Assembly (NCBI GenBank): GCA_902587565.1
Contig: CACILT010000005.1
Coordinates: forward strand, 10,461 to 74,460
DNA length: 64,000 nt
Origin: an uncultured Alphaproteobacteria bacterium
Lineage (GTDB): Bacteria; Pseudomonadota; Alphaproteobacteria; HIMB59; GCA-002718135
Reading direction: 5' to 3'
Shown: one piece after another, positions 43,846 through 63,221 of the stretch
Position numbering within the stretch: the first letter of the stretch is position 1
Layout of the letters: each line of letters starts with the position of its first letter
Made by a program: the position numbers and the translations under genes
The notes under the pieces: generated by a model
Databases searched by the model: none
Told to the model about the DNA's origin: nothing
What the model saw: the letters and a program-made list of their open reading frames with translations, nothing else

Positions 43846-44946
43846 ATGTACGACCTAAAAAAACATTTTCTAGCTGATAAAAAAATTATTTTATCAAAAA
43901 TTGAAAATGTCCTTAGCAAAGGTGTTTTGGAAATGGGTGAGGAGGTAGAGAAATTTGAAGAGAATTTTAAAAAATATTGTAATGTTAAATATTGTGTAAC
44001 TGTATCTTCTGGATCTATGGGGTTACTTTTAGCCCTTAAAACTTTAGACTTAAAAAAAAATGATGAAGTTATAACTGTATCTAATTCTGACATTCCAACA
44101 AGTCACGCAATTACTCTTGTTGGAGCAAAAATTAAATGGGTTGATATTAATGAAGATTCTTTAAATATTGATGAGAACAAAATCGAAAAAAATATAACAA
44201 AGAATACCAGGGCAATCTTACCTGTGCATTTATTTGGAAATCCATGTAATATTTCGAAAATATCATCTATTGCAAAAAAACATAAATTAAAAATTATTGA
44301 AGATGCGTGCTTGGCAACTGGTGCAGAGTACAAAAATAAAAAAATTGGTTCATTAAGTGATTTAACAGTTTTTAGTACTAATCCAGGTAAAATATTAGAT
44401 GGTATAGGCCCAGGTGGTATTATTACAACTAACAGTAAAAATTTGTATCTTCAGTTACTTCAGCTTCGTGATTATGGAAGAAAAGAGAGGCCTAAAAAAT
44501 GGCCAGTAAAATCTTATACAATAGGTTATAATTCAAAATTAAGTACAATAAGTGCCGCAATTCTTAATATTAGATTAGAAAAACTTGATGAATATATACA
44601 AATTAGAAATTATAACGCAGAACTGTACAAAGAAATTTTATTCTCTAAAAAAATAAAATTTCAAAAAACTCTTAAAGATGCAAAATCCTCCTGGAGAAAT
44701 TTTCCAATAAGAATAAAAAATAGAAATAAAATATATGATAAATTAAATTCTATAAATTCATTAGTAAAACTCAATTATTTACCGCCTAATCATCAAGATG
44801 AATGTTATAAAAATTTTAAACATAATTTTGATTTAAAAATTACAGAAAAAGTTAATTCTGAGATTCTAAATCTTCCATGTCATCAATATATGACAAAAAA
44901 TGAAATTGAAACTTTATCAAATCATCTACTAAATCTAATTAATTAG
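43846..44946 (+). CDS. DegT/DnrJ/EryC1/StrS-family PLP-dependent aminotransferase
   Basis: FE..F..Y...YCV.VSSGS..L, ILPVHLFGNP, and a PLP-Lys region FSTNPGKIL. 366 aa. Confidence 0.8.
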   Translation: MYDLKKHFLADKKIILSKIENVLSKGVLEMGEEVEKFEENFKKYCNVKYCVTVSSGSMGLLLALKTLDLKKNDEVITVSNSDIPTSHAITLVGAKIKWVDINEDSLNIDENKIEKNITKNTRAILPVHLFGNPCNISKISSIAKKHKLKIIEDACLATGAEYKNKKIGSLSDLTVFSTNPGKILDGIGPGGIITTNSKNLYLQLLQLRDYGRKERPKKWPVKSYTIGYNSKLSTISAAILNIRLEKLDEYIQIRNYNAELYKEILFSKKIKFQKTLKDAKSSWRNFPIRIKNRNKIYDKLNSINSLVKLNYLPPNHQDECYKNFKHNFDLKITEKVNSEILNLPCHQYMTKNEIETLSNHLLNLIN

Positions 44947-45938
44947 TATTTTAATTTAATAACTTTATTTATATTTATCGACTTATAAATTGCATCAACA
45001 ACTAAGACAGAATTTATTCCATCTTGTATTTTGATAAAAGGTTGGGTTTTTTTCTTTAGTGCATCAACATATGATTTTGCTTGAGTATAAAAATTATAGT
45101 TTAGACCATTCTTATTATAATATTTTGAATAATCATATGTTGTTATTTTATTTTTTGATCTTAGCTCTAATCCTTTTCTAATATTAATATCTATTTGTCC
45201 AGACGTGCCAAATATTTTTGTTTCCCATTTTGGAGTAGTCACATATGGCACAAAAGTTGCTATTAACTGAGCAGTTATTCCATTTTTAAACTTCATTGAA
45301 ATTGAAATTATATCTTCAACATCTATTTTGTTGTTTATATTTATTTTTTTTGCATAAACCTCATGAATTTTAGATTTAGCTAAGTATGAAATCTTATCTA
45401 AACTATGAATCGCATTGTATAGTAAAACACCTCCACCAGAATATTTCTTAACATCTATCCATTTTGGTAAAGATTTGTTTTTTTGAGAAATCATTGTTTC
45501 AGAAATAAATTTTATTTTCCCGATTTTTGAATTCTGTATCAGTTTGTAAGCAGTAAATACTTCTTTTCTGTATCGATGAACAAAACTAATTGTATGGGTA
45601 ATATTTTTTTTTAATATATATTTTTTTATAGAACTTAGCTCATTACTATTCAAAACTAATGGTTTTTCTATCAAAAGATTTATTTTATTTTTACAACACT
45701 CTAATATTGGTTCTATTCTCAAAAAATGTGGTAGTGCGATAACTATAAAATCAGGTTTTAACATTATAAGTTCATTAATATTATTGAAATGCTCTATATT
45801 GTTTAATTTTTTAAATTTATTAGCTTTTTTCAAATCATATTCTGTAAATCCAATTAATTTTAAATTTCTAATTTTTTTAAAAGCCTCAAAATGTCTTAAA
45901 CCTGCTTGACCAATTCCTAGTAAACCATATCTCATCAA
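44943..45938 (-). CDS. Gfo/Idh/MocA-family oxidoreductase
   Basis: N-terminal Rossmann motif YGLLGIGQAG and the EKPL motif (LIEKPLVL). Confidence 0.8.
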   Translation of the reverse strand: MMRYGLLGIGQAGLRHFEAFKKIRNLKLIGFTEYDLKKANKFKKLNNIEHFNNINELIMLKPDFIVIALPHFLRIEPILECCKNKINLLIEKPLVLNSNELSSIKKYILKKNITHTISFVHRYRKEVFTAYKLIQNSKIGKIKFISETMISQKNKSLPKWIDVKKYSGGGVLLYNAIHSLDKISYLAKSKIHEVYAKKININNKIDVEDIISISMKFKNGITAQLIATFVPYVTTPKWETKIFGTSGQIDINIRKGLELRSKNKITTYDYSKYYNKNGLNYNFYTQAKSYVDALKKKTQPFIKIQDGINSVLVVDAIYKSININKVIKLKY

Positions 45939-46834
45939 TAATTTGAAATAAGTTTATCAACTTTTTTAGTTTTTAGTAAGCTATTCTTATTAATTGCTTC
46001 TCTATAAGCTATAAAGAGAATTGATGAGAATATTATAGAAGCTCCTATCCATGTCCAAATATCAGGCACTTCCATAAAAAAGAAATATCCAATTAAAGAC
46101 AGCCAAATTAGTTTTGTAAATTGTATTGGCATTATAAATGTTGTTTCAGCCATTTTTAAACATTGAGCAAAACTGAACTGTGTTATAAATCCCGCAATAG
46201 CAACAAATATAAATAATAAAAATTGATTTATATTAATGCTTTCCCAAAAGAACAACGCAATAAAAAATGTCGGAGGAACCATGAAAGCCATTTGGTAAAA
46301 AGCAGTCGTTAAACTTGAATCCTTTTCAGTAAGTTTTTTTACAATTATTATTACTATTGAAAAAGTTATTGCTGCTGATAAAAGCCATAAAGCTCCACTC
46401 TCAAAAGGTATATACCCAGGCCTTATAACAACCAAAATTCCTATAAAGCCAACAATTAGTGCAGTAATTCTTTGAATTCTAATTACTTCACCTAAAAAAA
46501 TAATTGCGAGGATGGTAGTAAATAGTGGAGTAGTAAAACCTATAGCTGCTGCTTTTTCTAGTTGTAATGTTCCTATAGCTGTAAACCAGCTTATCATTGA
46601 ATAAACATTAATCGCAGATCTCACAAACTGTAGTTTTATGTTATGAGTTTTCCAAGCTTCTGGGTAATTATAAATCATAAAAGGTAACATAATAATAACC
46701 CCAAACAGACATCTGTAAAATGCAATTATGAAAGGGTTTAAATCTTGTGAAAGTAGTTTTATTCCTGAAACCATAATTGCTGCTGTACCAGTACCTAATA
46801 AAGATAACAAAATTACAAATAGTTTTTTATTCAT
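45935..46834 (-). CDS. EamA/DMT-family transporter
   Basis: 299 aa, 10 TM, with two EamA repeats. Its stop overlaps the downstream gene's start by 4 nt. Confidence 0.85.
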   Translation of the reverse strand: MNKKLFVILLSLLGTGTAAIMVSGIKLLSQDLNPFIIAFYRCLFGVIIMLPFMIYNYPEAWKTHNIKLQFVRSAINVYSMISWFTAIGTLQLEKAAAIGFTTPLFTTILAIIFLGEVIRIQRITALIVGFIGILVVIRPGYIPFESGALWLLSAAITFSIVIIIVKKLTEKDSSLTTAFYQMAFMVPPTFFIALFFWESININQFLLFIFVAIAGFITQFSFAQCLKMAETTFIMPIQFTKLIWLSLIGYFFFMEVPDIWTWIGASIIFSSILFIAYREAINKNSLLKTKKVDKLISNY

Positions 46835-46855
46835 ATTCTTAAAAATGTAATTTAA

Positions 46856-47019
46856 CTAATTACAATTTGCACAACACTGGTCGACCCAATGTCCTGGCTC
46901 TACTTCAATCAAACCCATTTCAATATTACCTCCTTTACAATCTATACCAGGGTTTGGACATCGTGTTCGAAAAACACAACCTGAAGGAGGATTAATAGGA
47001 CTGGGAATATCACCTTTAA
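46856..47019. repeat. 164-bp direct repeat, copy 2 (3' end of ATPase gene)
   Basis: See copy 1. The offset between copies is 11280 bp. A third, diverged copy lies at about 47818-47990. Confidence 0.9.
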
Positions 47020-48807: not shown

Positions 48808-48814
48808 ATTAATT

Positions 48815-50206
48815 TTATCTTATTGGAGATACAAAATTATTCATATTTCTATTCCTATAAAATTTTTTTCCATCATAAACCACTTTTCCATTAACTATAG
48901 TTTTATTTATCTTTCCTTTTATTTTTTCCCCAAAATATAGATGAGCACAGTTTTTTCCTTTTGAAACAAGGGTATTTCTATCCACAGTCCATTTCTTATT
49001 CATATCTAAAATAACTATATCTGCATCAGATCCTCTTTTAATTAAACCTTTATTTGGAAAAATATTAAATCTTTTTGCCGGATTAATACACATCAGTTCA
49101 ATTACTTTTTCTAATTTGATTTTTTTTTCTGAAACAGCTTTTAGCATAAGTGGTAACATTAATTCACCACTAGGCGCACCTGGAGGAGCTTTAAGAAAAT
49201 TTTTTTCCCCCTTTATTTTCTCATTGTATGAAAAAGAAGCATGATCAGAGGCTATAATATCAAGAGTTTTATTTTTAAGAGCTGACCATAATTTTTTTTG
49301 ATCTTTTTGTTTCCTTATTGGTGGATTAATTTTTCCAAATGGACCTGATTTAATTACATCTCTTTCATTTTTAAATAAATAGTGTGGACATGTTTCCGCA
49401 GTTATACTCTGACCTTTACTTTTAAATTTAGAAATTACTTCTAAAGATAATTCTGAAGTCACATGAGCAATATGAATTTTAGTTTTAACAATTGAATTCA
49501 ACCTTAGTATCTTTTCAATTGCACTTGCTTCTACAACAGCAGGTCTCATAGCATTATGTATTGCTGGATTATTTTTTTTAAAATTTTTTTGATTTTTCTC
49601 AAAATGATCAAGTAAATTCTGATCTTCAGCATGAAATATTGTCGTTAAATTTGATTTTTTTGCATGTATTAATGCTTTGAGAATATTTTTTTCTTCAGTA
49701 AAACACAATCCTTCAAATTCACTTTTTCTATCAAGTGGAGGAGCAATTGTAAAAACTTTAAAAGCAATAGCTCCACTATTTATTAATCCATTTAGATTTT
49801 TATCATTGAATTTTCCTAAAGCAGGAATCATAGCAAAATTAATGTAAGTATTTTCATCAAAATGTTTTTTTCTATGGTTGAGCACCTTAGCATTTGACAT
49901 GCACGGATTACTTATAGGCATTTCAAAAAGTGTAGTTATTCCACCCTTTGCGGCGGCTTTAGTTTCACTTTGAACTGTACCTCTTTGAGGAAATGATGGC
50001 GCTCTAACATGAAAATGAATATCAATTATTCCAGGAATAACAATTTTTTTATCAGCATTGATAATTTTTTTGGACTTAAATGATTTTATATTTTTTGTTA
50101 GCTTAAAAATTTTACCATCTTTGATTACAATATGGTTTTTTTTAAATTTATTTTCCTCAAAAACTTTTCCATTTTTTATAATCAAATCACAGTTAGTAAT
50201 CATCAT
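48815..50206 (-). CDS. Cyclic amidohydrolase (allantoinase / hydantoinase / dihydroorotase-like)
   Basis: PGIIDIHFHVR (HxH), GGITTLFEMP, AFKVF (carboxylated-Lys region), FHAED, HIAHVTS, ASDHA. 463 aa. Confidence 0.85.
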   Translation of the reverse strand: MMITNCDLIIKNGKVFEENKFKKNHIVIKDGKIFKLTKNIKSFKSKKIINADKKIVIPGIIDIHFHVRAPSFPQRGTVQSETKAAAKGGITTLFEMPISNPCMSNAKVLNHRKKHFDENTYINFAMIPALGKFNDKNLNGLINSGAIAFKVFTIAPPLDRKSEFEGLCFTEEKNILKALIHAKKSNLTTIFHAEDQNLLDHFEKNQKNFKKNNPAIHNAMRPAVVEASAIEKILRLNSIVKTKIHIAHVTSELSLEVISKFKSKGQSITAETCPHYLFKNERDVIKSGPFGKINPPIRKQKDQKKLWSALKNKTLDIIASDHASFSYNEKIKGEKNFLKAPPGAPSGELMLPLMLKAVSEKKIKLEKVIELMCINPAKRFNIFPNKGLIKRGSDADIVILDMNKKWTVDRNTLVSKGKNCAHLYFGEKIKGKINKTIVNGKVVYDGKKFYRNRNMNNFVSPIR

Positions 50207-51627
50207 TCAAAAATTTTTAGTTCTTTTAATGCTTTTGCAACTCCATCAAGATTTGACAGTTTCATAGATGCATAATTTGGCGACAACACAATCCCTTTTC
50301 CTCCAGCATTATACGTTGCTAAAACTGATCTATAAGCAATATCTGGTGTACAGATTGCTTGTTCTTTTGATGATCGAGGTGCATCAATACCAATACCCAT
50401 ATATACTTTAGATTCACCATCAACACCTCTAACTGCATCCGCACATTGAGTATAAATATATGTATCTGGATCTAATCCTCTTTCTATTAGATTATTTAAG
50501 CTAGTTTCATTAATTCCTAAAATTTTAGAAAAAGATGAAACCAACTCAGAATTAGATAATTCATTTAAAATTGTTTTTCCAAATATGTTTATTTCTCTGT
50601 GGAATATTTCACCAGATTGATGTTGATAAGTTATAGGCTTTACCCAATCCGAATAATCTACCTGTTCTTTCCAAGGCCACTGTATTTTTCTAATAAAATT
50701 AAAATGATTTCTATTCCAAACGTTTAATCCAAAAGACAAATTAGGTTTGATCCATTTAACTAAACCATAAATTTCTTTATCTAAGTCTTTATTTCTTTTA
50801 AGCCAAAATTTTTCCCACTCTAAAATTTCAGGTTTATCAAATAGTATTCTAAAAAATTCAATTAAGTTTCCATCAACAAAATTTTTTCCATCCAATGTTT
50901 TTTGAAAGAACTCATATAATGACAACAAAGAGTCTCTTATTTTTTCAATATTTAAATTAAAAGTTTTGGCTTCTAGTAAAAAATCTTCTGAAAAATCACC
51001 AGGTGCATTTCCTTGAAATAACTGATCTAGAGGTGAATATCTTTCATTACACCACATAACGCCATCAATATCATAATTAGCAACTTGATCTTCAATCATT
51101 GATAAGATCCAATTTCTATAATTTTTATTACTTGTAGAAGGTGATTTGCTAATTTTTCCAAAGACATCTACTTCCATACATTGAACTAAATTTGGAATGT
51201 CTACTCCTGTAGCCGAGCCATGACCTGCATAATTGAAAAATGGTTCCATTAATTCAATAAAAATTTTCATTCCTCTTTCTCTTGCTTTAGGAATAACCAT
51301 TTTTAAAATATCTTTATTTTTCATTTCTTTGTCTTGGGCTTTAAAATCTTTTATAAAAGTTTTATTATAAAATTTGGGATCTGGATCAAAATATGCTCCA
51401 CCTTTCATTGAAAATGGTTCTGGAATTCCATGATCTGGCCAACCATCTATTTCCCAAGACACTGATCTTCCTGATTTTAATCCAAGCCATGAAACAGTCC
51501 CAATTAGTAGAACATTTACACCAACACGTTTTTGTAAAGTATCCAATACATTATCAATTCCCTCATCAATAAATGAAATTGGACTTATTTGAATTCCAAC
51601 AAATTTATCTTTTTCTTTTTTAATCAT
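50203..51627 (-). CDS. Hypothetical protein (474 aa), family not recognised
   Basis: Clean ORF with 4-nt overlaps to both neighbours in the operon. No TM segment or signal peptide. YDIDGVMWCNER is a possible barrel beta4-NE motif; this is weak. Confidence 0.6.
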   Translation of the reverse strand: MIKKEKDKFVGIQISPISFIDEGIDNVLDTLQKRVGVNVLLIGTVSWLGLKSGRSVSWEIDGWPDHGIPEPFSMKGGAYFDPDPKFYNKTFIKDFKAQDKEMKNKDILKMVIPKARERGMKIFIELMEPFFNYAGHGSATGVDIPNLVQCMEVDVFGKISKSPSTSNKNYRNWILSMIEDQVANYDIDGVMWCNERYSPLDQLFQGNAPGDFSEDFLLEAKTFNLNIEKIRDSLLSLYEFFQKTLDGKNFVDGNLIEFFRILFDKPEILEWEKFWLKRNKDLDKEIYGLVKWIKPNLSFGLNVWNRNHFNFIRKIQWPWKEQVDYSDWVKPITYQHQSGEIFHREINIFGKTILNELSNSELVSSFSKILGINETSLNNLIERGLDPDTYIYTQCADAVRGVDGESKVYMGIGIDAPRSSKEQAICTPDIAYRSVLATYNAGGKGIVLSPNYASMKLSNLDGVAKALKELKIFE

Positions 51628-52781
51628 CTTAAAAAATTATTAATCCTTGTCATTGACTCTTCTATTTTTTCAAGAGGTTGTAAATAAGACAAACGTATAT
51701 ATTTATCTTCTTCATCGCCAAACAAAGTACCAGGAAACATAAGAACACCTGTATTAATAAGTAATTCCTTACAAAAAGTTGAAGCAGTCATATTTGAATT
51801 TGATACATTTGTATAAATATAAAAAGCACCTCCTGGATCACCATATGTAAAACCAATATCACTAAGGGCCTTCATGCTAAACTTTCTTCTTTCATTATAT
51901 TCATTTTTCATTTTATTAAACTCTTCTTGAGGACCATCTAAAGCAGCTAAAGCTCCATATTGAGAAAATGTACATGTATTTATTGATAAGGCATGTCTTA
52001 TTTCTGTCATTTTATTTATAATATCTTTTGGACCTGCAATATATCCAACTCTCCAGCCAGTCATAGCATAAGTTTTAGAAAAACCATTTAGTGTTAATGT
52101 TCTTTCCTTCATTTTTTCAAGTGAACCAATTGATAGATGCTCATGCGAATCATAAATTAAGTCAGCATAAATCTCATCTGATATTACAATTAAATTATTA
52201 TCTATTGCTATCTGAGCAATTTTTTTAATATTATTTGGAGGTGTTACAGCTCCTGTAGGATTATTTGGTGAAACAAGAACAAGCAACTTAGTTTTTTTAG
52301 TAATTTTTTGCTCAATTAATTCTGGCATTAATGCAAAATTATCTTTTTCGTATGTGTGAACAGGTACAGGTTTAGCATTACACATCCTTACTGTTAAATC
52401 ATATGTAGTAAATCTTGGTGAGGTAATTAAGACTTCATCATCTGCTTTTAATAATGAAATCATTGCGAGAGCAATACTTTCTTGAACACCAGCTGTGATA
52501 ATTATTTCATCTTCAGAATAATCTAAATTATATTTTAGCTCAAAATTTTTAGATATAGATTTTCTCAATTCTGGCAGTCCAGTTGGAGGTGTGTAATGAT
52601 GTTTGTTTTCATCAAGGGCTTTTTTCGCAGCCTCAACTATATGTTGTGGTGTGTGAAAATCTGGATCTCCTCTTCCTAAAGCTATTACATTATCCATACC
52701 CGAAGCTATTTTTAAAAGATCTGATCTTAATGTCTCATCGTCTAGTGATATTTCTTTAGATTTATTAAAAACTATGCTCAT
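51624..52781 (-). CDS. Class I/II PLP-dependent aminotransferase (AspC-like)
   Basis: NPNNPTG, DEIY, and PLP-Lys region NGFSKTYAMTGWRVGY. Paralog of 59701..60864. Confidence 0.9.
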   Translation of the reverse strand: MSIVFNKSKEISLDDETLRSDLLKIASGMDNVIALGRGDPDFHTPQHIVEAAKKALDENKHHYTPPTGLPELRKSISKNFELKYNLDYSEDEIIITAGVQESIALAMISLLKADDEVLITSPRFTTYDLTVRMCNAKPVPVHTYEKDNFALMPELIEQKITKKTKLLVLVSPNNPTGAVTPPNNIKKIAQIAIDNNLIVISDEIYADLIYDSHEHLSIGSLEKMKERTLTLNGFSKTYAMTGWRVGYIAGPKDIINKMTEIRHALSINTCTFSQYGALAALDGPQEEFNKMKNEYNERRKFSMKALSDIGFTYGDPGGAFYIYTNVSNSNMTASTFCKELLINTGVLMFPGTLFGDEEDKYIRLSYLQPLEKIEESMTRINNFLR

Positions 52782-55222: not shown

Positions 55223-56258
55223 TATTTAAATCTTTTGCTAAAATGTTAAAAGAATCTATTACTTCACAATCAATTAGTATTCCTTTTTCTAATTTTTCTT
55301 TAACTCTTTTATTCTCAAGATCGCCAGGAACTAAAATTTCATCAAATCCAGGTCTAAGTGGCAATTTTTTAAGCGTATCAACAAAATCATTTATGCGTGA
55401 ATAGAAATCAGAAATTTCCATAAACCACTCTATATTTATCGCTGTTAATGAATGAGAAACATCTAGTTTTTTTGGATCGGAGTAAGGTATTAATCCATAT
55501 CCACCACCGCTTATAACTCCTGTTAAGATATCAGTCATAAACGATAAACCATAACCTTTATATTTTCCAATACCTAATAAAAAACCATCCATAGCATCAG
55601 AAGGATTGGTTGTTTCTTCACCTTCTTTAGTGAGAGCCCAATCGTTTGGCATTGGTATTTGCTCTCTTTCATGCCATCTCATCATTCCTTTGCCAGCTGT
55701 TGTTAATGCTATATCTAAAATTAAAGGATAACCTCTATTAGTAGGACAAGAAATACCCCATGGATTTGTTCCAACACCTCCACTTCTAGATCCCCATGGG
55801 GCCATTTCGGGTCCTGCATTTGTATACGCAATTCCAATACAATTTTTTTTTGTTGCTCTTACTGCATGAACTGAACTAGAACCAAAGTGAGTTGAATTTT
55901 TTATAATTACTTGACCTATGCCTTCATTCTTTGCTTTTGTAATCGCAATATCCATACATTTAGATGCTTGTACTGTTCCAATTCCATTTTTTGCATCTAC
56001 CAAAGCTAAGGAAGAACTTTCTTTTAGAATATCTAAATCAATATTTATGTTTACTTCTTTATTTTTAATTCTTTTGTAATATGTTGTTATTCTTTGAACC
56101 CCTTGACCTTGACCGCTATGAAATCTCAGTTCTGAAAACATCAAAGCGTCAGTAAAAATTTTTGCATCTTCATTTCTTAATCCCATTGCTAAAAAAGAAT
56201 TAAGTACAAAATTTTCTAAATTTTTAAAGTTGACTAATGTCATATCTATATTTTGCAT
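55203..56258 (-). CDS. Ldh2-family (malate/L-lactate/ureidoglycolate dehydrogenase type 2) oxidoreductase
   Basis: 351 aa. HFGSSS, NPWGI, AGKGM and KGYGLSF motifs are typical of the Ldh_2 family. Confidence 0.85.
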   Translation of the reverse strand: MQNIDMTLVNFKNLENFVLNSFLAMGLRNEDAKIFTDALMFSELRFHSGQGQGVQRITTYYKRIKNKEVNINIDLDILKESSSLALVDAKNGIGTVQASKCMDIAITKAKNEGIGQVIIKNSTHFGSSSVHAVRATKKNCIGIAYTNAGPEMAPWGSRSGGVGTNPWGISCPTNRGYPLILDIALTTAGKGMMRWHEREQIPMPNDWALTKEGEETTNPSDAMDGFLLGIGKYKGYGLSFMTDILTGVISGGGYGLIPYSDPKKLDVSHSLTAINIEWFMEISDFYSRINDFVDTLKKLPLRPGFDEILVPGDLENKRVKEKLEKGILIDCEVIDSFNILAKDLNIDKLKI

Positions 56259-56262: not shown

Positions 56263-57141
56263 TTATTTTTTAAATTTTAAATAATTTACAATATTTGCGT
56301 TACTGTTTAATTTTGGAATTCCATCATTTGTTTTTGAAGACATTAATATAGTAAGACCCGGTCCATAACCGGCTCTTGGACCATTAGTTTGACCTACAAT
56401 ACCTATTGACCAAGCTTTTCTTAAGAAACCATGTTGATAACTGCTATCATAATTTTCTACGTATACAAAGTCACCCAAACGCAAATTATTAAGTTTATAC
56501 TTTTTCATTTCATTTAGATCTGTTGTTTGAATGTGTAAAGAACCTGATTCACTTGTTAATCCTGAACCAGCTCCAACTAAGTGCTCTGGTATGATGTGTG
56601 TGACTGGTATGTTTAGTTTTTTATTTTTAATCTTGATATTCATTTTATTAAAAATTTGAGGTGATAAACTTTTGCAGAAAATATTTTCAAAATTTTTTAT
56701 TTTTAAACCTACGCCCAATGACTTTATTAAAATTTTATCATTAATTGAAATCCTCTCCCTTACTTTTTTTTCGAAATGTATAATTATTTGTTCAGAGAAT
56801 CTACCTGACTTGCCAGATACAAACCCAACTGAATTTTTAGCTTCACCATTCATTATAATTGCTTCATTACCAACACATGATAAAATATTTAAACCTCTGT
56901 TACCTCCTTCACTAGGATATTTAATAGAAACACCTGGATGAATACAATCAGCTTCCCAACCAAATGCAGAATCGCCAACAGATACATTATGAACTATGGA
57001 TCCCCATGTAGGTAAAAGAAAAGGAATACCGTCAGAGTCTAAGCGGTACGGTTCAGCAGGCAAACCTTGGAAATTTGGTTGACACACAGATCCCATTACA
57101 CTGACATTAACTAATAAATTTTCGTTAGTTTCTATCTTCAT
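56263..57141 (-). CDS. Uncharacterised protein, tandem paralog B (292 aa)
   Basis: Shares VGD[SN]AFGW..D...PGVSI, GN[EK]AI...GEAK, G[AS]G, LGD and GPG[IL].I[LM] blocks with 57138..58001. Possibly DUF4438-like; that is from memory and unverified. Confidence 0.65.
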   Translation of the reverse strand: MKIETNENLLVNVSVMGSVCQPNFQGLPAEPYRLDSDGIPFLLPTWGSIVHNVSVGDSAFGWEADCIHPGVSIKYPSEGGNRGLNILSCVGNEAIIMNGEAKNSVGFVSGKSGRFSEQIIIHFEKKVRERISINDKILIKSLGVGLKIKNFENIFCKSLSPQIFNKMNIKIKNKKLNIPVTHIIPEHLVGAGSGLTSESGSLHIQTTDLNEMKKYKLNNLRLGDFVYVENYDSSYQHGFLRKAWSIGIVGQTNGPRAGYGPGLTILMSSKTNDGIPKLNSNANIVNYLKFKK

Positions 57142-58001
57142 ATTTTTATTTTTAATAAATTTTTGATGTTTGCTTTTTTATTAATTTTCCAACTTAAATC
57201 TTTTTTTTTGCCTGTCATTATAGTCATAATTCCAGGACCGTGACCTGACATTACAGAATCTCCATGAATGCAAATTGCAATGCTAACATAATCTTTTTTA
57301 TATGATCTTCCCCACCTGTGATCAGCATGATTTATAGCGATTAAATCACCAAGTTTCATTTGATCAATTTTTAATTTTTTCATTAAGGCTCGATCACCAG
57401 ACATCAGATCTTGATCTACGTATTCAGAATTCAACTCTGCTCCAGATCCCATAATACGTATTGGTAATTCGATTGCGACATCGACTATTAATTTTTTTTT
57501 AACAATTTTTAAAAATAAAGATTTTAAAAGTTTTGGATCAATTTTTTTAATTTCAATATTTGGAAAATCTAATAATTTTAATCCTCTACCATGAGTTATG
57601 ATATCAATTTGATCACCTATGCAAATCTTATCTAGAATTTTATTTTCGAAATGTATTAAATTTCTTGCATGCTCCCCAGTCACTATGCCAATTGCACCTT
57701 TAGCTTCACCCGATCTAACTATAGCCTTATTGCCAGTGCATACCAAATAATGCAAAGCAAAATGCTCATTAGGATTTTCAGAGTCTATCGAAACACCTGG
57801 TTCAACGTGATCTCCAGCCCAACCAAATGCATTATCTCCTACTTTAATATTATTTACTACACCAAACATTCCTGGATAAATCACAGCCTGTCCATCATTA
57901 TTTGGAATATATCCAGGATTTTTAAAAGAGGGTTGCGTTGCAAAACCCCCAATTGACATTTTTATTAAATTTTTCTCATTAGTTTTTAAATTTGAAATCA
58001 C
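57138..58001 (-). CDS. Uncharacterised protein, tandem paralog A (287 aa)
   Basis: First gene of the minus-strand operon. Overlaps paralog B by 4 nt (ATGA). No TM segment or signal peptide. Confidence 0.65.
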   Translation of the reverse strand: MISNLKTNEKNLIKMSIGGFATQPSFKNPGYIPNNDGQAVIYPGMFGVVNNIKVGDNAFGWAGDHVEPGVSIDSENPNEHFALHYLVCTGNKAIVRSGEAKGAIGIVTGEHARNLIHFENKILDKICIGDQIDIITHGRGLKLLDFPNIEIKKIDPKLLKSLFLKIVKKKLIVDVAIELPIRIMGSGAELNSEYVDQDLMSGDRALMKKLKIDQMKLGDLIAINHADHRWGRSYKKDYVSIAICIHGDSVMSGHGPGIMTIMTGKKKDLSWKINKKANIKNLLKIKI

Positions 58002-58166
58002 ATTGAGAGGAATATCTTGTTTAATTTAAATAAAGAATAACAAAATTGTCATTACAGTGTTGATAAAATGTAATCTAAAAAATACTCGTATATTGCAAAA
58101 TAATCACCACCAAAATGATAAATTATCTATTTCTTAAATTATAAAAACAATTTAGATACGATTTTT

Positions 58167-59708
58167 ATGGGAACTTCATTTGAAAATTTAAATAATGAAA
58201 TTAAAAAATTTAATGATGTCTTAAACACTATGAATATTTTGATTTGGGATTCTAGAACTAAAATGCCAAAAAAAGGAGCATCTGGAAGAGGTTCACAGAT
58301 AGGAAGTCTTACATCTGTAGCAAGAGAAATATTACTATCTTCAAAAATGAGAAAATTATTGGATGAATCTGATAATGAAACTCATAATTTAGATGATGAT
58401 ACTTTTGAAAGAAAAACACTTAAACATTTAGGTGAGGCTATTGAGTATCATGATAAAATACCAGAAAAAATTCAAGTTAGAAAAGCTGAAATTGAACCTT
58501 TAGCCCATAATGCTTGGGCTGAAGCAAGAGAAAAAAAAGATTTTAGCATTTTTAAACCACTCTTACAGGAGCAAGTTGATATAGCAATTGAGCAAGCTCA
58601 CTGTATCGGTTTTAAAGAGCATCCATACGATGCATTAATGCAAAGATTTGAACCAGGTGAGTCTGTAAAATCACTTAAAAAATTATTTGATGTATTAAAG
58701 TCAGGCCTTGGAGAAATACTTAAAGAAACCTCAAAAGTAGCAAAACCAAATAAAAGTTTTTTATATAAAAATTATCCTGTAGAAAAACAAATTGAGTTCT
58801 CTACAAAAATTGCAAGTAAGTTTGGATATGATTTTGACAGGGGAAGATTAGATAGCACTGTTCATCCTTTCGAAATTTCTTTTACTAGAGATGATGTAAG
58901 AATTACCACAAGATATTATGAAGATTTTATAAATCCATCTTTATTTGGTACTTTACATGAAGCAGGTCACGGAATTTATGAACAAAATATTAATGAAAAA
59001 TACACTCGCTCAGCAATGACAACAGATTTTTTAAGCTTTTATGCTGTTGGTGGAGTTAGTTTTGGTGCTCACGAGTCCCAGTCAAGATTATATGAAAATC
59101 ATATTGGTAGAAGTAAAATTTTTTGGGAAAACCACTTTGGTGATTTAAAAGATTGCTTTCCGGAAGCATTAAAAAATGTTTCTGCTGAAGACTTTTTTAG
59201 AGCAGTAAATGTAGTTGAACCAAGTCTTATAAGAGTAGAGTCTGATGAATCTACGTACGATTTTCATATCATGTTAAGAGTTGATATAGAAAGTATGCTA
59301 ATTGATAAAAGTTTAAAAGTAGCAGATTTACCAATTGTTTGGAATGAACAAATAAAACAATATTTAGATCTCGAAGTACCTGATGACAGTCAAGGTGTCT
59401 TACAAGATATTCATTGGTCAGGTGGTCAATTTGGTACTTTTTGTAATTATACAATTGGAAATGTTATGGCTGCTCAGCTAATGGAAATAATGAAAAAAAC
59501 AAACCCAGAAATACAAAATGATATTAATCAAGCTAATTATGAGCCACTACTCAATTGGTTAACATCAAACATTCATACTCATGGAAGACGATACACAAGA
59601 AACGAATTATTAGAAAGGTCTACTGGAGAAACTCTAAATCCTTTACCTTATATTAATTATCTTAAAGGCAAGGCCAGCCAAGTTTATGGAGTAAAATTTA
59701 ATGATTAA
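58167..59708 (+). CDS. M32 carboxypeptidase (Taq-type metallocarboxypeptidase)
   Basis: HEAGHGIYE (HExxH), TVHPFEISF, IRVESDESTY and DIHWSGGQFG motifs. 513 aa. Confidence 0.9.
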   Translation: MGTSFENLNNEIKKFNDVLNTMNILIWDSRTKMPKKGASGRGSQIGSLTSVAREILLSSKMRKLLDESDNETHNLDDDTFERKTLKHLGEAIEYHDKIPEKIQVRKAEIEPLAHNAWAEAREKKDFSIFKPLLQEQVDIAIEQAHCIGFKEHPYDALMQRFEPGESVKSLKKLFDVLKSGLGEILKETSKVAKPNKSFLYKNYPVEKQIEFSTKIASKFGYDFDRGRLDSTVHPFEISFTRDDVRITTRYYEDFINPSLFGTLHEAGHGIYEQNINEKYTRSAMTTDFLSFYAVGGVSFGAHESQSRLYENHIGRSKIFWENHFGDLKDCFPEALKNVSAEDFFRAVNVVEPSLIRVESDESTYDFHIMLRVDIESMLIDKSLKVADLPIVWNEQIKQYLDLEVPDDSQGVLQDIHWSGGQFGTFCNYTIGNVMAAQLMEIMKKTNPEIQNDINQANYEPLLNWLTSNIHTHGRRYTRNELLERSTGETLNPLPYINYLKGKASQVYGVKFND

Positions 59709-60864
59709 GAAAAATTTTGTCGCTTCAAGAATTAAAGATCATAAATCTAATATTGTAACAAAAATGTGGAATATTCAACAAAAATTAGATGATGTAATTG
59801 CAATGGGAAGAGGTGATACTGATTTAGATACACCAAGACATATCATAGATGCAGGTATAAATGCTCTAAACAATGGAGCAACACATTATACACATCCTAT
59901 GGGTATGCCAGAATTAAGAAATGAAATTTGTAACGATATATTAAAGAATGGAGGAGCAAAATATAACGATGACGAAATAGTTGTTACAGCTGGAGGTCAG
60001 GAAGCAATGTTTGCAATTGCTTTAGGTATATTAAATGCTGGTGATGAAATGATTGCTGTAGCTCCTGGCTACAATCCATATTTTCAGGCAGCTGAATTAG
60101 CAGAAGCAAAGCCAGTTATGGTTAAGACTTATATTGATAATAATTTTGCAATGACTGCTGAAGCTGTTGAACCCTTAATAACTGATAAAACTAAAATTAT
60201 GGTTATTATCAATCCTTGCAATCCAACTGGTGCAGTTACACCTTATGAAGAAGTACTTAAATTATCACAATTAGCAATAAAACATGATCTTATAGTAATA
60301 TCTGATGAGATCTATTCTCGTCTTACTTTTGGAAATCATACAGCACAACCTGTTGCAGCTTTACCAGAAATGTTTGAAAGAACTATAACTTTAAATGGAT
60401 TTTCAAAGTCATATTGTATGACCGGATGGAGAGTAGGATATTTTGCTGCACCAAAAAATTTGATAACTCATTTAGGTGAGATTCATCATGGATTTGCAAT
60501 ATGCGCTCCTGCAGTTAGTCAACATGCAGCTCTTGCAGCTCTTAAGGGTTCTCAGGATTGTGTAAAAGAAATGCAGCAAATCATGCAGGAAAGATGTGAA
60601 ATATTATGCAATGGACTTGATGAAATTAATATACCTTATTCAGAACCACAAGGAGGATATTACGTATATGCCAATGTTTCAAAAACAGGCATGAATGCTA
60701 CAGATTTTTGTCTGAAATTATTGGAAGAGGGAAAAGTTATAATTTACCCTGGAGGTTTATATGGTGATCACTGTGATGATTTTGTAAGATTTTCTCTAAC
60801 TCAACCAGCAAATAAAATTAAAGAAGCAGTATCCAGAATAAAAAAAGTTGTATCAACAATATGA
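59701..60864 (+). CDS. Class I/II PLP-dependent aminotransferase
   Basis: NPCNPTG, DEIYS and NGFSKSYCMTGWRVGY. Overlaps the upstream gene by 8 nt. Confidence 0.9.
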   Translation: MIKKNFVASRIKDHKSNIVTKMWNIQQKLDDVIAMGRGDTDLDTPRHIIDAGINALNNGATHYTHPMGMPELRNEICNDILKNGGAKYNDDEIVVTAGGQEAMFAIALGILNAGDEMIAVAPGYNPYFQAAELAEAKPVMVKTYIDNNFAMTAEAVEPLITDKTKIMVIINPCNPTGAVTPYEEVLKLSQLAIKHDLIVISDEIYSRLTFGNHTAQPVAALPEMFERTITLNGFSKSYCMTGWRVGYFAAPKNLITHLGEIHHGFAICAPAVSQHAALAALKGSQDCVKEMQQIMQERCEILCNGLDEINIPYSEPQGGYYVYANVSKTGMNATDFCLKLLEEGKVIIYPGGLYGDHCDDFVRFSLTQPANKIKEAVSRIKKVVSTI

Positions 60865-61343
60865 ATGCCAAATTAAAAAATGAGGTTTTAGAAATAAAAC
60901 ACATGGCATTTGCTGTAGAAGATATTGAACAATCACTAAAATATTATAAAAAATTTATGGGCGTATCAAATGATATAGAAATTCAAGATATGCCAAAATC
61001 ACGTACAAGAGTTGCTGTTTTTAATATTGGAGATATAGAATATCAACTCTGTCAATCACAAGATCCTGATGGAAGATTTAATAAATGGATAAAAGAAAGA
61101 GGAAGAGGTGGCTTGCACCATATTTGTTACGTAGTTAAAAATTTAGATGAGTCAATAAAGGTAATGACAGACGAAGGTGCTACTCTTAGGGAATGTAAGG
61201 CATGTAAAGTAGTTGGAAATCATCCTCACCCTGAAGGTTTTATTGCATTTTTAGATAATGAGGTTGATAATATTGAAGTAGAATTAATGCAAGTTTACAC
61301 AGATCAAGAATTAGAAAAATATAAATCTTATCAAGGAATATAA
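60861..61343 (+). CDS. VOC/glyoxalase-family protein (methylmalonyl-CoA-epimerase-like), paralog of 31947..32438
   Basis: IKHMAFAVEDIEQSL, GLHHICYVVKNLDESI, and the shared C-x-A-C...HPHPEGF segment. Confidence 0.75.
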   Translation: MNAKLKNEVLEIKHMAFAVEDIEQSLKYYKKFMGVSNDIEIQDMPKSRTRVAVFNIGDIEYQLCQSQDPDGRFNKWIKERGRGGLHHICYVVKNLDESIKVMTDEGATLRECKACKVVGNHPHPEGFIAFLDNEVDNIEVELMQVYTDQELEKYKSYQGI

Positions 61344-61345
61344 AT

Positions 61346-62233
61346 ATTAAATCAATTTATATCACGGGTGCTGGAGGCTTTTTAGGATCTGAATTAGTCA
61401 ATGGACTTTCATTATTAAATTATCAAATTTATGCAAATGATATAAATTTTTCTTATAAAATAAATAAAAATAAAAAAATAATTCTTCTTAAAGAAAACTT
61501 ATTACCTAACAAACACAAGATTAATATTAACAATTGTGACATTTTTATTCATGCATGTGCGTTGACTAAAACATATAAAGATAAAAATAAAAACTTATTT
61601 AAAGTTAATACGAAATTGACTAGGAAAGCATTAATTTTAGCTAAGCAACTTAATTGTAAAAATTTTTTTTTTATAAGCTCAACTTCTGTCTATAGAAAAT
61701 TCTCAAAATACAAATATAATGAAAAATCAAAAACTTCTGGACAAGATAGTTATTCTAAATCAAAATTAAAAGGTGAAAAAATATCAAAAGATTTTTGTAA
61801 CAAACATAAGATTAAACTTACTATATTGAGAATAGGTAATATTTATAGTGGTCATGAGAAAATAAAATGGAGTAGATTAAATGTATCACAAATTCAGAAA
61901 TGGATTAATGATAACAAAAAAAATAAAATCTTAAAAACAAGTAATTTTGATACCTTAAGAGATTGGACATATGTTAAAGATATACCCAAAGCTTTAAATA
62001 GCATAATTATAAATAATCAAAATTTTAAGATACTCAATTTAGTATCTCCTTATTGTTATAAAGATATCTATTTAATGAAAAAAATATCTAAAAATAATAA
62101 ACTAATTAATTCATTAGAAAATAATAATAATAATAATGCGAGTTATTCAATTTATATTGATAAAATATTATTTAAAAAATGGACTACTTTTCAAAGAGCA
62201 TTTAACTTAATTAAAAATTATGAAAACTTATAA
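61346..62233 (+). CDS. NAD-dependent epimerase/dehydratase (extended SDR); apparent non-canonical (ATT) start
   Basis: The track starts at TTG 61562, but the frame is open from 61325 and encodes the Rossmann motif ITGAGGFLGS at 61361-61390. IFIHACA, SSTSVY and YSKSK (YxxxK) follow. There is no ATG/GTG/TTG between 61325 and 61361. The ATT at 61346 would give MKSIYITGAGGF. Confidence 0.65.
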   Translation: MKSIYITGAGGFLGSELVNGLSLLNYQIYANDINFSYKINKNKKIILLKENLLPNKHKININNCDIFIHACALTKTYKDKNKNLFKVNTKLTRKALILAKQLNCKNFFFISSTSVYRKFSKYKYNEKSKTSGQDSYSKSKLKGEKISKDFCNKHKIKLTILRIGNIYSGHEKIKWSRLNVSQIQKWINDNKKNKILKTSNFDTLRDWTYVKDIPKALNSIIINNQNFKILNLVSPYCYKDIYLMKKISKNNKLINSLENNNNNNASYSIYIDKILFKKWTTFQRAFNLIKNYENL

Positions 62234-63221
62234 GGTGGTATTAGTTGGCTACGGCCCAAGAGGTAAAATATGGTCTAAAATTTTAAAAAAAAACAAAAAT
62301 GTGAAGTTGGTTGCAATATGTGACATCAATTTAAAAACCAAAAATAAAGACTCAAAGAAAATTCCTTTTTACTTAAAGATTGAAAATGCCATTTTTGAAA
62401 ATAATCCAGATTTTATTGTCTTATCAACACCTCCAGCATCAAGAATGAAAGATTTAAAAGTTTGCGCAAAATATAAATTGCCTGTTTTAGTTGAAAAGCC
62501 ACTTGCTGTTAATATTAATGAGGCAAAAAAATTAGTGAGATTTATGAACCGAAATAAATTATTAATGATGGTCGGTTTAAATTTTCGATATCTTCCTTCA
62601 ACAATTGAAAAAATAAAATTAATTAAATTAAATAAAGTCGGAAAACCAAATTTTGCAAGATTTGTTTATGAGAGATGGCGAGATGGAAAGCTTAAGCGAT
62701 TAAATAAATACCCTCTTTTAATGGATCAACCAATGCTTTGGGAGCAATCAATTCATCATTTTGATTTAATACGATATGTATACAATTCAGAAATAAAAAG
62801 CGTATATGCTACGACGTCAAATCCACCTTGGTCAATGTATAAAGATGATACAAATGTTAATGCAATACTCGAATTAAAAAATAAAATAATAATAAATTAC
62901 GTAGGTAATTGGCAGAGTAATTCAAAGTCATTAAATTTTGAATGGAGAACTGATTGTGAAAATGGAATAATAATTCAAAAAAAACAATTTGAAGACTTAT
63001 ATTACAGACATTTCAAATCTAAAGTAGAAAAAAAAATCAAACTTAAAAAAATAAAAATGTGGTTCGACGATGCTAATCTATTATTAAATGATTTTTTAGA
63101 CTCTCTTCGAAAGAAAAAGGATATTTACAAAATAAACTCTGATCATTTAAAATCATTAGCTGTTGTAGATGCTTGTATAAAATCTTCTAAAACTGGAAAA
63201 AAAGTAAGGATATTAAGCTAA
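62220..63221 (+). CDS. Gfo/Idh/MocA-family oxidoreductase
   Basis: VVLVGYGPRG Rossmann start and the EKPL motif (LVEKPLAV). Overlaps the upstream gene by 14 nt. Confidence 0.8.
   Translation: MKTYKVVLVGYGPRGKIWSKILKKNKNVKLVAICDINLKTKNKDSKKIPFYLKIENAIFENNPDFIVLSTPPASRMKDLKVCAKYKLPVLVEKPLAVNINEAKKLVRFMNRNKLLMMVGLNFRYLPSTIEKIKLIKLNKVGKPNFARFVYERWRDGKLKRLNKYPLLMDQPMLWEQSIHHFDLIRYVYNSEIKSVYATTSNPPWSMYKDDTNVNAILELKNKIIINYVGNWQSNSKSLNFEWRTDCENGIIIQKKQFEDLYYRHFKSKVEKKIKLKKIKMWFDDANLLLNDFLDSLRKKKDIYKINSDHLKSLAVVDACIKSSKTGKKVRILS

Follow-up and report, generated by a model that had tools for sequence, protein, structure and literature searches.

What compound is served by a large divergent pair of operons in a SAR11 genome? 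The pair lies in a stretch of 64,000 nucleotides (the window; GenBank assembly GCA_902587565.1, contig CACILT010000005.1, positions 10,461 to 74,460) from an uncultured alphaproteobacterium of the HIMB59 lineage, here counted with SAR11. A preliminary description had placed 12 closely spaced open reading frames (ORFs) on the minus strand (58001 to 44943) and a further five on the plus strand (58167–63221), and could name no pathway for this mixture of enzymes. On balance, and with modest confidence, we favour the reading that the locus represents, in SAR11, a discrete catabolic cassette that carries its own importer, is shared horizontally between phyla and mineralises one specific small conjugate. 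The cassette is uncharacterised in the literature that we searched, and it includes two families without known function, DUF4438 and a glycosidase-like (GHL) barrel.

All 17 ORFs lie exactly at the coordinates first given. The spacings of the minus-strand operon, counted from the end of the GFO1 gene (44943) to that of the DUF4438 gene (58001), are −4, 21, −4, 7, −4, −4, −1, 12, −20, 4 and −4 nt, and the largest gap is the 21 nt that had been stated as the limit. Those of the plus-strand operon are −8, −4, 2 and −14 nt, given a start of the epimerase gene at the ATT at 61346, as discussed below. No terminator-like sites on the minus strand were found in a scan of the minus-strand operon, and we infer from the spacing that its 12 genes are co-transcribed. 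The two operons are separated by 165 bp (58002..58166), presumed to be a shared control region, which holds weak AT-rich inverted repeats only. A promoter scan of this segment gave no enrichment over shuffled sequences; like the terminator scan and the repeats, it is uninformative in DNA as AT-rich as that of the window (about 29% GC). Every family name of the preliminary description is borne out by Pfam, with which the ORFs between 30.9 and 63.2 kb were scanned. The families are Ldh_2, Creatinase_N plus M24, Amidohydro_1, Aminotran_1_2, a cyclic amidohydrolase, two ABC_tran plus oligo_HPY proteins, EamA and GFO/IDH/MocA in the minus-strand operon, and M32, Aminotran_1_2, Glyoxalase_4, Epimerase and GFO/IDH/MocA in the plus-strand operon. 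Three ORFs had been left without a family; two of them now fall into DUF4438 by Pfam, and the third, of 474 amino acids, is a remote GHL10 barrel. Sequence searches of the PDB with seven of the enzymes (one of them without a significant match) and two solute-binding proteins (SBPs) returned generic superfamily relatives only.

The arrangement recurs far outside this genome. A scan of one genome per species returned 271 relatives; 80 loci were retrieved and the window proteins mapped onto them. The order VOC–AT2–M32 / DUF4438a–DUF4438b–Ldh2–M24–Amh411–AT1–GHL–(Hyd)–DppD–DppF was present in more than 60 of 85 loci. The carriers belong to SAR11, Rhodobacterales, Rhizobiales (Rhizobium, Neorhizobium, Devosia, Pelagibacterium and Aureimonas), other Alphaproteobacteria, Gemmatimonadota/Longimicrobiales, Deinococcota (Truepera/Trueperaceae) and Acidobacteriota (a metagenome-assembled genome (MAG) of Vicinamibacterales), and come from marine, soil and soda-lake habitats. 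Six bacterial groups share this order, in more than 60 independent loci, and the arrangement is real and far from chance. A comparison of synteny across Pelagibacterales had been proposed at the outset; the SAR11 loci are indeed syntenic, and the cassette reaches at least four phyla, hence it is no SAR11 peculiarity. The window cassette is 96–100% identical to loci of SAR11 single-cell genomes and similar to that of a Pelagibacteraceae MAG, and most cassette proteins elsewhere are 50–66% identical to the SAR11 copies. For the GHL protein the identities are 73% between Gemmatimonadota and Rhizobiales, 78% between Gemmatimonadota and Acidobacteriota and 63% between SAR11 and Rhodobacterales; AT1, Amh411, Ldh2, DUF4438a and M32 follow the same pattern. 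As these group identities contradict the species tree, they indicate that the cassette has moved between phyla, with the SAR11 copy the most diverged.

Within this common plan the members differ in constancy. Both aminotransferases are found in nearly all loci and M32 is the divergent partner in most. Hyd is absent from many Gemmatimonadota loci and is thus accessory, M24 is the least conserved member and is absent from a few loci, and the DUF4438 pair is absent from L014, L029 and L032. In a Trueperaceae locus with scrambled order (L080), the genes for the PuuE-like protein, Amh, Hyd, AT, GHL, SBP, M32, M20 and Ldh2 still stand together. Because spurious antisense ORFs dominate the high-GC loci, neighbouring genes were clustered after greedy gene selection; the only recurrent extra neighbours were GntR, M14 (8 loci), a pair of ABC exporter genes, HyuAB and a creatininase-like gene. 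The island had been called partly duplicated. BLASTP confirms the paralogous pairs, with identities of 43% for AT1/AT2, 49% for VOC1/VOC2, 28% for the 411- and 412-residue COG1228 amidohydrolases and 25% for GFO1/GFO2. The term is nonetheless too strong, the pairs being old (25–49% identity) and both aminotransferases being fixed members of the cassette in every phylum; the VOC duplication alone looks lineage-specific.

The cassette brings its own importer. The ATPase genes dppD (47818–48807) and dppF (46856–47821), on the minus strand and each encoding ABC_tran plus oligo_HPY domains, have orthologs (51–60% identity) that close the cassette in other phyla. A gene for a family-5 SBP had been noted after the plus-strand operon; it was found at about 63358 on the plus strand (SBPc, 5' part at 63358..64000), encodes a signal peptide and runs off the window. 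A SAR11 metagenome contig that extends past the window end (L089) carries, after GFO2, genes for SBPc (519 amino acids, SBP_bac_5; L089:3077–4636), DppB and DppC, and behind them a third GFO gene and one for an SDR protein. The island thus runs on past the limits first given for it and past the end of the window. Orthologs of SBPc and of the two permeases (DppBc and DppCc), 57–65% identical, occur in 16–17 Rhodobacteraceae loci, where they adjoin DppD/DppF. The SBP at about 63358 is therefore no bystander but the cognate binding protein, and DppD and DppF complete its transporter. SBPc by itself is 57–62% identical to its orthologs in Rhodobacteraceae, among them those of Limimaricola pyoseonensis and Wenxinia saemankumensis, and 51–53% in Truepera/Trueperaceae (L022, L035 and L080), whereas the two other Dpp-type systems of the window share only 23–40% identity with the cognate permeases and SBPs. 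In SAR11 the importer genes are split over two divergent operons. In two of the metagenome contigs from the Joint Genome Institute (L089 and L090) the genes for M32, DUF4438b, Ldh2, M24, Hyd and the SBP are divided into two or three called pieces; these look like assembly frameshift errors and not pseudogenes, as the genes are intact in L091 and in single-cell genomes.

With a family-5 SBP, two permeases and two oligo_HPY ATPases, the importer has the full composition of a Dpp/Opp/Nik-type system. Its specificity is not named by any model: among NCBIfam families (values here and below are score/cutoff), the permeases are nearest to Nik/Opp types (Opp2B 304/350, Opp4C 288/350), and SBPc lies far below the cutoffs of all eight family-5 SBP models that it matched, among them Opp4A (127/650), NikA (106/393), GsiB (101/594), DppA (74/1005) and CntA (68/800). 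A survey of SAR11 SBPs yielded no family-5 ligand. The closest parallels in organisation are ddpXABCDF and gsiABCD of E. coli and the opine/agrocinopine loci of Agrobacterium, in which a family-5 SBP, two BPD_transp_1 permeases and two oligo_HPY ATPases are likewise encoded together with hydrolases for the imported compound. The cassette differs from these in that its importer reaches no equivalog, its transporter genes are split over two operons in SAR11, and its enzyme set is far larger and includes families absent there.

Which known pathway comes closest? Several enzymes point to ureides. The cyclic amidohydrolase Hyd (48815..50206, minus strand) belongs by NCBIfam and PDB comparison to the hydantoinase/allantoinase/dihydroorotase family; its PDB relatives are L- and D-hydantoinases, its pyrC_multi domain passes (288/279), and it falls short of ErtD (343/650), allantoinase (300/358, AllB TIGR03178) and D-hydantoinase (275/393). 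The Ldh_2-family NAD(P) oxidoreductase (Ldh2; 55203..56258, minus strand; PF02615, 313 bits) is nearest to type-2 malate and L-sulfolactate dehydrogenases (PDB 1V9N and 2X06) and scores below the models for sulfolactate dehydrogenase (227/500) and ureidoglycolate dehydrogenase (156/356). Three further enzymes lie apart from the operon pair, downstream of the VOC1 gene (31947–32438): an AstE/AspA-type deacylase (32441–33424; DoeB 95/403), a PuuE-like CE4-fold hydrolase (33434–34339; PuuE TIGR03212, 358/425) and an M20 carbamoylase-family amidase (34332–35579; TIGR01879, 231/204). The AstE and/or PuuE-like gene directly follows VOC in six loci (L023, L029, L032–L034 and L065), VOC1–AstE precede Ldh2 in L014, and the whole VOC1-operon block abuts the cassette in the SAR11 loci L006, L007, L016 and L017. 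We regard the operon at 31947–35579 as a detached part of the same system.

These likenesses suggest a reading in which the substrate is a ureide, hydantoin or other cyclic-amide N-heterocycle (allantoin-, dihydroorotate- or hydantoin-carboxylate-like), with Hyd and the PuuE-like protein opening the ring, M20 removing the carbamoyl group, an aminotransferase and Ldh2 carrying out transamination and oxidation, and the peptidases secondary. The domain and subfamily models passed by Hyd and M20, the ureidoglycolate-dehydrogenase relatives of Ldh2, and the HyuA/B and creatininase-like genes that join the cassette in a few loci fit such a route. Yet no core enzyme reaches the NCBIfam equivalog cutoff for the allantoin, hydantoin, ectoine, ergothioneine or dihydropyrimidine pathways, the further misses being allantoate amidohydrolase (318/399), ErtE (214/520), AllD (TIGR03175, 145/496) and DoeA (39/575 and 27/613). 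The models passed are of subfamily or domain rank only (M20 TIGR01879, Hyd pyrC_multi and SDR2 glucose-1-dehydrogenase). For the allantoin pathway, the cutoffs of both AllB and PuuE are missed; for a hydantoin (Hyu) system, M20 passes, D-hydantoinase is missed by Hyd, and no racemase family was found among the scanned ORFs. The cassette shares a cyclic amidohydrolase, a PuuE-like hydrolase, an M20 amidase and Ldh2 with allantoin, hydantoin and ergothioneine systems, but allantoicase, ureidoglycolate lyase, hydantoin racemase, dihydropyrimidine dehydrogenase and the ErtA–C families were not among the region's scanned ORFs. The ring hydrolases are accessory across lineages: Hyd has the gaps in Gemmatimonadota mentioned above, and M20 stands beside the cassette only in SAR11 loci, apart from an M20-type ORF of 25% identity in L080, the 10-kb flanks mostly ending at VOC. 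The most conserved components, namely GHL, DUF4438, M32 and the COG1228 amidohydrolase, and the Nik/Dpp-type importer would be left unexplained. The purine/allantoin operon described in SAR11 (PMC11698098) consists of a different gene set. We consider the ureide reading quite unlikely and place it second among the alternatives. The preliminary description had called for a comparison with allantoin, hydantoin and ectoine clusters and had found no pathway to name; with every pathway equivalog cutoff missed and no one-to-one orthology to a known cluster found with these models, that assessment stands.

The protein that sets the cassette apart most clearly is the GHL barrel (50203..51627, minus strand; 474 amino acids, predicted cytoplasmic). 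No other protein of the cassette is so well conserved: its orthologs in Rhizobium, Pelagibacterium, Rhodobacteraceae, Longimicrobiales and Trueperaceae are 62–67% identical. The window protein matches no Pfam family at E ≤ 0.001; its orthologs have only weak precomputed matches to PF02638 (GHL10), whose gathering score the window copy does not reach. In an AlphaFold model (pLDDT 81, pTM 0.85) it is predicted to adopt a (beta/alpha)8 fold of the glycoside hydrolase type. Foldseek places the GHL10 enzyme Cwp19 first (1.8e-11), followed by the C-terminal domain of PgaB (GH153), GH42, GH35 and GH164, at identities of 10–15%. A W-C-N-E-R motif is invariant at the end of strand 4, and its Glu-Arg pair is unchanged even in relatives of 30% identity; the loops are strongly conserved yet poorly modelled. 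The literature on GHL10 that our search returned covered only Cwp19 of C. difficile and DogH of Deinococcus. The window protein resembles GHL10 in its fold (Foldseek TM about 0.5–0.63) and differs from it in being 14–15% identical, without a Pfam match, cytoplasmic and part of a small family of its own (729 clusters at 50% identity). The preliminary description had suggested a peptide-like or N-heterocyclic substrate; the evidence is compatible with that, but the suggestion left out a probable sugar or glycosyl element, to which this protein points.

The surroundings of distant GHL members are informative. Relatives of 25–40% identity adjoin Dpp permeases with two amidohydrolases; a family-5 SBP, an FGGY kinase and a sugar-isomerase-type TIM protein; or a GHL6/GH42-like protein. 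In a Parabacteroides SusC/D locus, two GHL homologs occur with GH43, BglX and a prolyl-oligopeptidase-family gene. Some distant members are about 30–55 residues longer at the N-terminus. By analogy with these contexts the family looks carbohydrate-active and repeatedly tied to peptide-type transport or peptidases, and fold and context together predict that GHL is probably a glycosidase. Among 80 GHL loci from soil metagenomes, right-handed beta-helix proteins were the commonest neighbours and made up 13 of the 110 ORFs found alongside. In these loci (L100–L179), which hold a GHL subfamily 44–45% identical to the Granulicella protein described next, a beta-helix protein of about 500 residues (Beta_helix/DUF1565/NosD) is regularly found upstream on the same strand; the pair looks like an undescribed two-gene glycan-active module. 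A plasmid collection contained two distant GHL homologs and no ortholog of the cassette.

One of these contexts bears on the foremost, though still unlikely, of the alternatives, the catabolism of proline- or hydroxyproline-containing (glyco)peptides such as pieces of collagen or of hydroxyproline-rich glycoproteins from algae or plants. Under it, the importer would bring in Xaa-Pro/Hyp peptides, the M24-like, COG1228 and M32 enzymes would free the imino acid, GHL would remove an O-linked sugar, and DUF4438 with Ldh2 would proceed through a pyrroline-2-carboxylate-type intermediate. On plasmid pACIX901 of Granulicella tundricola, a full-length GHL homolog of 32% identity, about 40 residues longer at the N-terminus (which may be a signal peptide), lies in an operon with GH127, a full hydroxyproline pathway (a proline-racemase-family protein, a three-subunit FAD dehydrogenase, a DHDPS-family protein and an aldehyde dehydrogenase), an M1 peptidase, a peptidyl-prolyl isomerase and aminopeptidase P. 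The arrangement is repeated in two soil contigs from close Granulicella relatives, and the Parabacteroides locus adds its prolyl-oligopeptidase-family gene. Of the characterised proteins, prolidases and aminopeptidase P stand closest to M24; Amh411 and its 412-residue paralog are nearest to Xaa-Pro dipeptidases and prolidases. Pyrroline-2-carboxylate reductases of the Ldh2 family occur in hydroxyproline and D-proline clusters, as HypS of S. meliloti and DpkA/LhpD of Pseudomonas. The likeness of the cassette to such Lhp/Hyp clusters extends over the GHL-family protein, aminopeptidase-P/prolidase-type enzymes and a GntR regulator. The defining enzymes are nevertheless missing: no proline racemase, D-hydroxyproline dehydrogenase (DAO), DHDPS-type deaminase or alpha-ketoglutarate semialdehyde (aldehyde) dehydrogenase was found among the ORFs scanned from 30.9 to 63.2 kb. 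Moreover, Ldh2 is nearest to malate and sulfolactate dehydrogenases and not to DpkA, imino acids are no substrate for aminotransferases, and the ureide-type hydrolases have no place in the scheme. Among distant GHL loci, 3 of 82 show the linkage to hydroxyproline, all of them from Granulicella or close relatives. The link is real in Granulicella, but only 2 of 80 further loci share it, and we therefore treat it as an alternative and not as the main reading.

The best structural match of GHL, a peptidoglycan-cleaving enzyme, raises another possibility, that the substrates are cell-wall or thiol glyco-amino-acid conjugates, such as muropeptides or bacillithiol- and mycothiol-like compounds. GHL would then cleave an amino-sugar glycoside, amidases would free the amino acids, and an aminotransferase and Ldh2 would take up the aspartate- or malate-type products, with the GFO/IDH/MocA, DegT, epimerase and SDR genes of SAR11 processing the amino sugar or cyclitol. 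AT1 (51624..52781, minus strand), a class-I enzyme resembling aspartate aminotransferases (AspATs) and aromatic aminotransferases, has a best NCBIfam score of 356/620 and PDB relatives 1GD9, 1DJU and 1J32; the affinity of Ldh2 and of both aminotransferases to type-2 malate dehydrogenases and AspATs, respectively, agrees with this scheme. In SAR11 the cassette is joined by three iolG-like GFO genes and by genes for a PseC-like sugar aminotransferase and an epimerase; 8 loci carry an M14 peptidase, and carriers from sea, soil and soda lakes would suit a ubiquitous bacterial product. The cluster, however, is without AmpD, NagZ, MurQ, AnmK, LdcA, an LmbE/Mca-type amidase, a racemase or a D-amino-acid enzyme. 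The PuuE-like protein is far nearer to allantoinase than to peptidoglycan deacetylase, and none of the eight SBP models whose cutoffs SBPc misses is of the murein-peptide (MppA) type. This reading is speculative, and we give it a low probability, third among the alternatives.

The second family without known function is represented twice. DUF4438a (57138..58001) and DUF4438b (56263..57141), both on the minus strand, each pass the Pfam gathering scores for both domains (PF14505 and PF20999; 151 and 136 bits in a, 153 and 116 bits in b) and are 36% identical to each other by BLASTP. The structure of the family was solved in 2008 as TM1086. A sequence search relates DUF4438a to this protein (PDB 3DCL/3N99) at 3.6e-60, and Foldseek with a model of DUF4438a (pLDDT 82.6) gives a TM of 0.88 to 3DCL, TM1086 being the sole PDB relative of the fold. 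The family-invariant residues H65, E67, H111, S186, D196, D198, H246 and H254 are kept in DUF4438a in 65 of 65 orthologs. In DUF4438b, the corresponding positions hold C65, H67, S111, A186, S196, H198, Q/A/S246 and Y/F254 in 67 of 67 orthologs. Such constancy points to a fixed alternative site and not to decay, and suggests that the two proteins form an obligate heteromer. In Thermotoga, Caloranaerobacter and Zhenhengia, DUF4438 is a single-copy gene with housekeeping neighbours and no catabolic context, and these distant loci were discarded as a guide to function. A literature search returned no paper on DUF4438, and the term TM1086 matched only unrelated C. elegans strains.

The remaining hydrolases resemble peptidases. 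The M24 protein (54029..55222, minus strand; PF00557 121 bits, PF01321 53 bits) combines a Creatinase_N domain with a 'pita-bread' hydrolase domain that passes the Pfam gathering score. In an alignment with E. coli MetAP, D97 is replaced by G, D108 by E and E235 by I, and H171, H178 and E204 are kept, in 68 of 68 sequences. With three of the five canonical ligands changed, the dinuclear metal centre appears incomplete, and the proteins would constitute a distinct subfamily and not a standard prolidase. The COG1228-type amidohydrolase Amh411 (52781..54016, minus strand; Amidohydro_1) is related to Xaa-Pro dipeptidases, Arg carboxypeptidases and ochratoxinase-type amidases (PDB 2QS8, 3BE7, 3MTW and 4C5Y) and scores 208/500 with XaaProDiPepCaul, the Caulobacter-type Xaa-Pro dipeptidase model; its metal ligands (HxH, K, H, H and D motifs) are intact. 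The plus-strand operon opens with an M32 (Taq-type) carboxypeptidase (58167..59708; Pfam 558 bits) that contains the motifs HEAGH and HES. Amh411, Hyd, M32, AstE and M20 all have their metal-ligand motifs and are plausibly active hydrolases.

An altered M24-fold hydrolase next to an AstE/AspA-type deacylase recalls the DoeABCD/EutDE route of ectoine degradation, and a parallel pathway for another cyclic amidine or amino-acid-derived solute has been weighed. In such a pathway the M24-like enzyme would open a ring, the AstE/AspA-type enzyme would deacylate, and an aminotransferase and a dehydrogenase would complete the route, in parallel to DoeA, DoeB, DoeD and DoeC. Counterparts exist for all four reaction types, M24 weakly matches DoeA, AstE matches DoeB with 95 bits, and the metal site of M24 is non-canonical. 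Neither DoeA (39/575) nor DoeB (95/403) is an ortholog, though, and the aminotransferase class, the dehydrogenase family and the type of transporter differ. M24 is also the least conserved member and absent from several loci, and GHL, DUF4438, M32 and the COG1228 enzyme would again be unexplained; we give this route the least credence of all. It is also very unlikely, if marginally less so, that the locus serves general uptake and proteolysis of oligopeptides by broad-specificity peptidases and transaminases, with no single substrate. Three Dpp-type systems within 40 kb, the M32, M24-like, COG1228 and M20 enzymes and two broad AspAT-like transaminases would be in keeping with it. But the glycosidase-like barrel, the DUF4438 pair, Ldh2 and VOC would be needless for such a task, yet are the most faithfully kept; none of the 68 M24 orthologs has the canonical dinuclear site, and the conservation of SBPc at 57–62% across orders points to one defined ligand.

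For the favoured reading, a single specific conjugate, we propose the following scheme. The Nik/Dpp-type importer (SBPc, the two permeases beyond the window and DppD/DppF) would take up one specific small conjugate. In the cytoplasm, a set of C-N hydrolases would cleave its amide bonds, namely M32, the COG1228 amidohydrolase, the M24-like enzyme whose metal site is altered and the AstE/AspA-type deacylase. The hydantoinase-like, PuuE-like and M20 carbamoylase-type enzymes would, in most lineages, open a ureido group or a cyclic amide. The GHL barrel would probably remove a sugar or sugar-like moiety, and SDR2, described below, may oxidise the freed sugar. The two class-I aminotransferases would deaminate the amino acids released, and Ldh2 would interconvert the resulting 2-oxo acid and 2-hydroxy acid (or cyclic imine). 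DUF4438a/b, encoded directly upstream of Ldh2, may be a heteromeric enzyme of a new type that feeds the Ldh2 step. In sum, the cell would regain nitrogen and carbon from a conjugate of an amino acid or short peptide that is N-blocked or glycosylated. What the analysis establishes is the gene content, the synteny, the cognate transporter, the family and fold assignments and the residue patterns; the reactions, the kind of substrate and co-transcription are inferred from these.

Several observations weigh against this scheme. The conserved core holds no sugar-catabolic route. Hyd, M24 and the DUF4438 pair are each absent from some loci, so that the pathway is not uniform, and the assortment of hydrolases could reflect several substrates instead of one. 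GHL is only 10–15% identical to true glycosidases and its catalytic nucleophile was not identified; it could catalyse a non-glycosidic reaction. Co-transcription, lastly, is argued from gene spacing. We rank the specific substrate proposals discussed above below the general conjugate reading, each of them explaining part of the conserved set. A bolder form of that reading, which we regard as possible but put forward only tentatively, is that the cassette encodes a new pathway for a glycosylated or N-blocked conjugate and a new SAR11 route to dissolved organic nitrogen, in which DUF4438a/b would be a new enzyme with two sites (H/E/H/D/D/H/H and C/H/S/S/H) and GHL would found a new glycosidase family.

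The rest of the plus-strand operon consists of AT2, a class-I aminotransferase (59701..60864), VOC2, a VOC/Glyoxalase_4 protein resembling methylmalonyl-CoA epimerase (60861..61343; NCBIfam 61/115), an NAD-dependent epimerase/dehydratase-family protein (61346..62233) and GFO2 (62220..63221). The epimerase ORF as called from the TTG at 61562 is too short, the Rossmann motif lying upstream of it at about 61364–61393; gene callers likewise truncate the protein to 205–223 amino acids. In 15 SAR11 loci (window segment 61333–61393; L006–L018 and L089–L091), no ATG, GTG or TTG precedes the motif, TGAGGFLG. The same loci, which represent several divergent alleles, share a conserved AAGGAA; about 7 nt further on stands ATT or ATA (probably ATC in one allele), and a Lys codon comes next. 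The epimerase thus probably starts at a non-canonical AUU or AUA codon, 2 nt past the VOC2 stop. Weak counterparts of the epimerase and of GFO2 (38–40% for GFO2) stand beside the cassette only in Truepera. At the other end of the island, the EamA transporter gene (45935–46834) and GFO1 (44943–45938), both on the minus strand, occur in no locus outside SAR11 and are lacking in part of the SAR11 loci, GFO1 being absent from L006, L007, L016 and L017; both are accessory SAR11 additions. GFO1 and the convergent DegT gene for a PseC-like sugar aminotransferase (43846–44946, plus strand) share 4 nt where their stop codons meet, which leaves no space for a terminator between them.

Between the VOC1 operon, which is preceded by a LysR regulator gene (30943–31920, minus strand), and the cassette lies an accessory block b on the minus strand (35576..43706) with SDR2, SDR1, the 412-residue COG1228 amidohydrolase (Amh412), SBPb, DppBb, DppCb and a fused DppDF. 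This block of about 9 kb and GFO1 are absent from L006, L007, L016 and L017, which are otherwise syntenic. As the VOC1 operon abuts the cassette there, block b and GFO1 represent an indel among SAR11 genomes. The DegT allele of the same four loci is also distinct (79% against 91–99%). SDR2 passes the glucose-1-dehydrogenase subfamily model (233/215) and accompanies the cassette in 11–12 non-SAR11 loci; the SDR1–SDR2 pair stands beside it in Rhizobium and Devosia (43% and 54–56% identity), as does the Amh412 gene in Devosia YR412. A further Dpp-type transporter a (SBPa, DppB, DppC and a fused DppDF; 25677..30950, plus strand), outside the Pfam scan, was identified in its genes (25.7–30.9 kb) by BLASTP paralogy to system b, to which the permeases are 38% and 40% and the fused ATPase 42% identical. 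It is not the cognate system: the ORFs labelled SBPa in other phyla are only 24–27% identical to SBPa and prove to be orthologs of SBPc at 57–62%. In systems a and b the two ATPases are fused (585–612 amino acids; 29193–30950 and 35576–37414), and the cognate DppD and DppF are separate.

The window's first 25 kb have no connection with the island; they encode a sugar ABC system, a sulfatase and FGE, UxuA and heme synthesis. At 2989–6765, genes for a sulfatase and an FGE-sulfatase-type maturase precede a 609-residue ORF that overlaps and has no Pfam match. At 13837–16631, a 341-residue ORF without a Pfam match precedes a 588-residue protein that has a C-terminal OmpA domain only, and at 20147–21655 an ORF of 502 residues matches porphobilinogen deaminase in residues 3–234 only and may be a fusion.

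SAR11 is the ocean's most abundant heterotroph and its genomes are streamlined. That such a genome keeps a system of about 20–38 kb with a dedicated high-affinity importer suggests that the substrate is important in the sea, and the passage of the cassette among marine, soil and soda-lake bacteria of several phyla suggests a widespread compound whose turnover is unaccounted for. The cassette gives DUF4438 and the GHL-like barrel family a functional context that can be tested, and with one conserved binding protein and several culturable carriers, among them Devosia enhydra ATCC 23634, Limimaricola pyoseonensis DSM 21424, Pelagibacterium lentulum, Neorhizobium galegae and Rhodophyticola porphyridii, the substrate is within reach of ligand screening. 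If our reading is true, the cassette would provide SAR11 with a new route to a specific pool of dissolved organic nitrogen.

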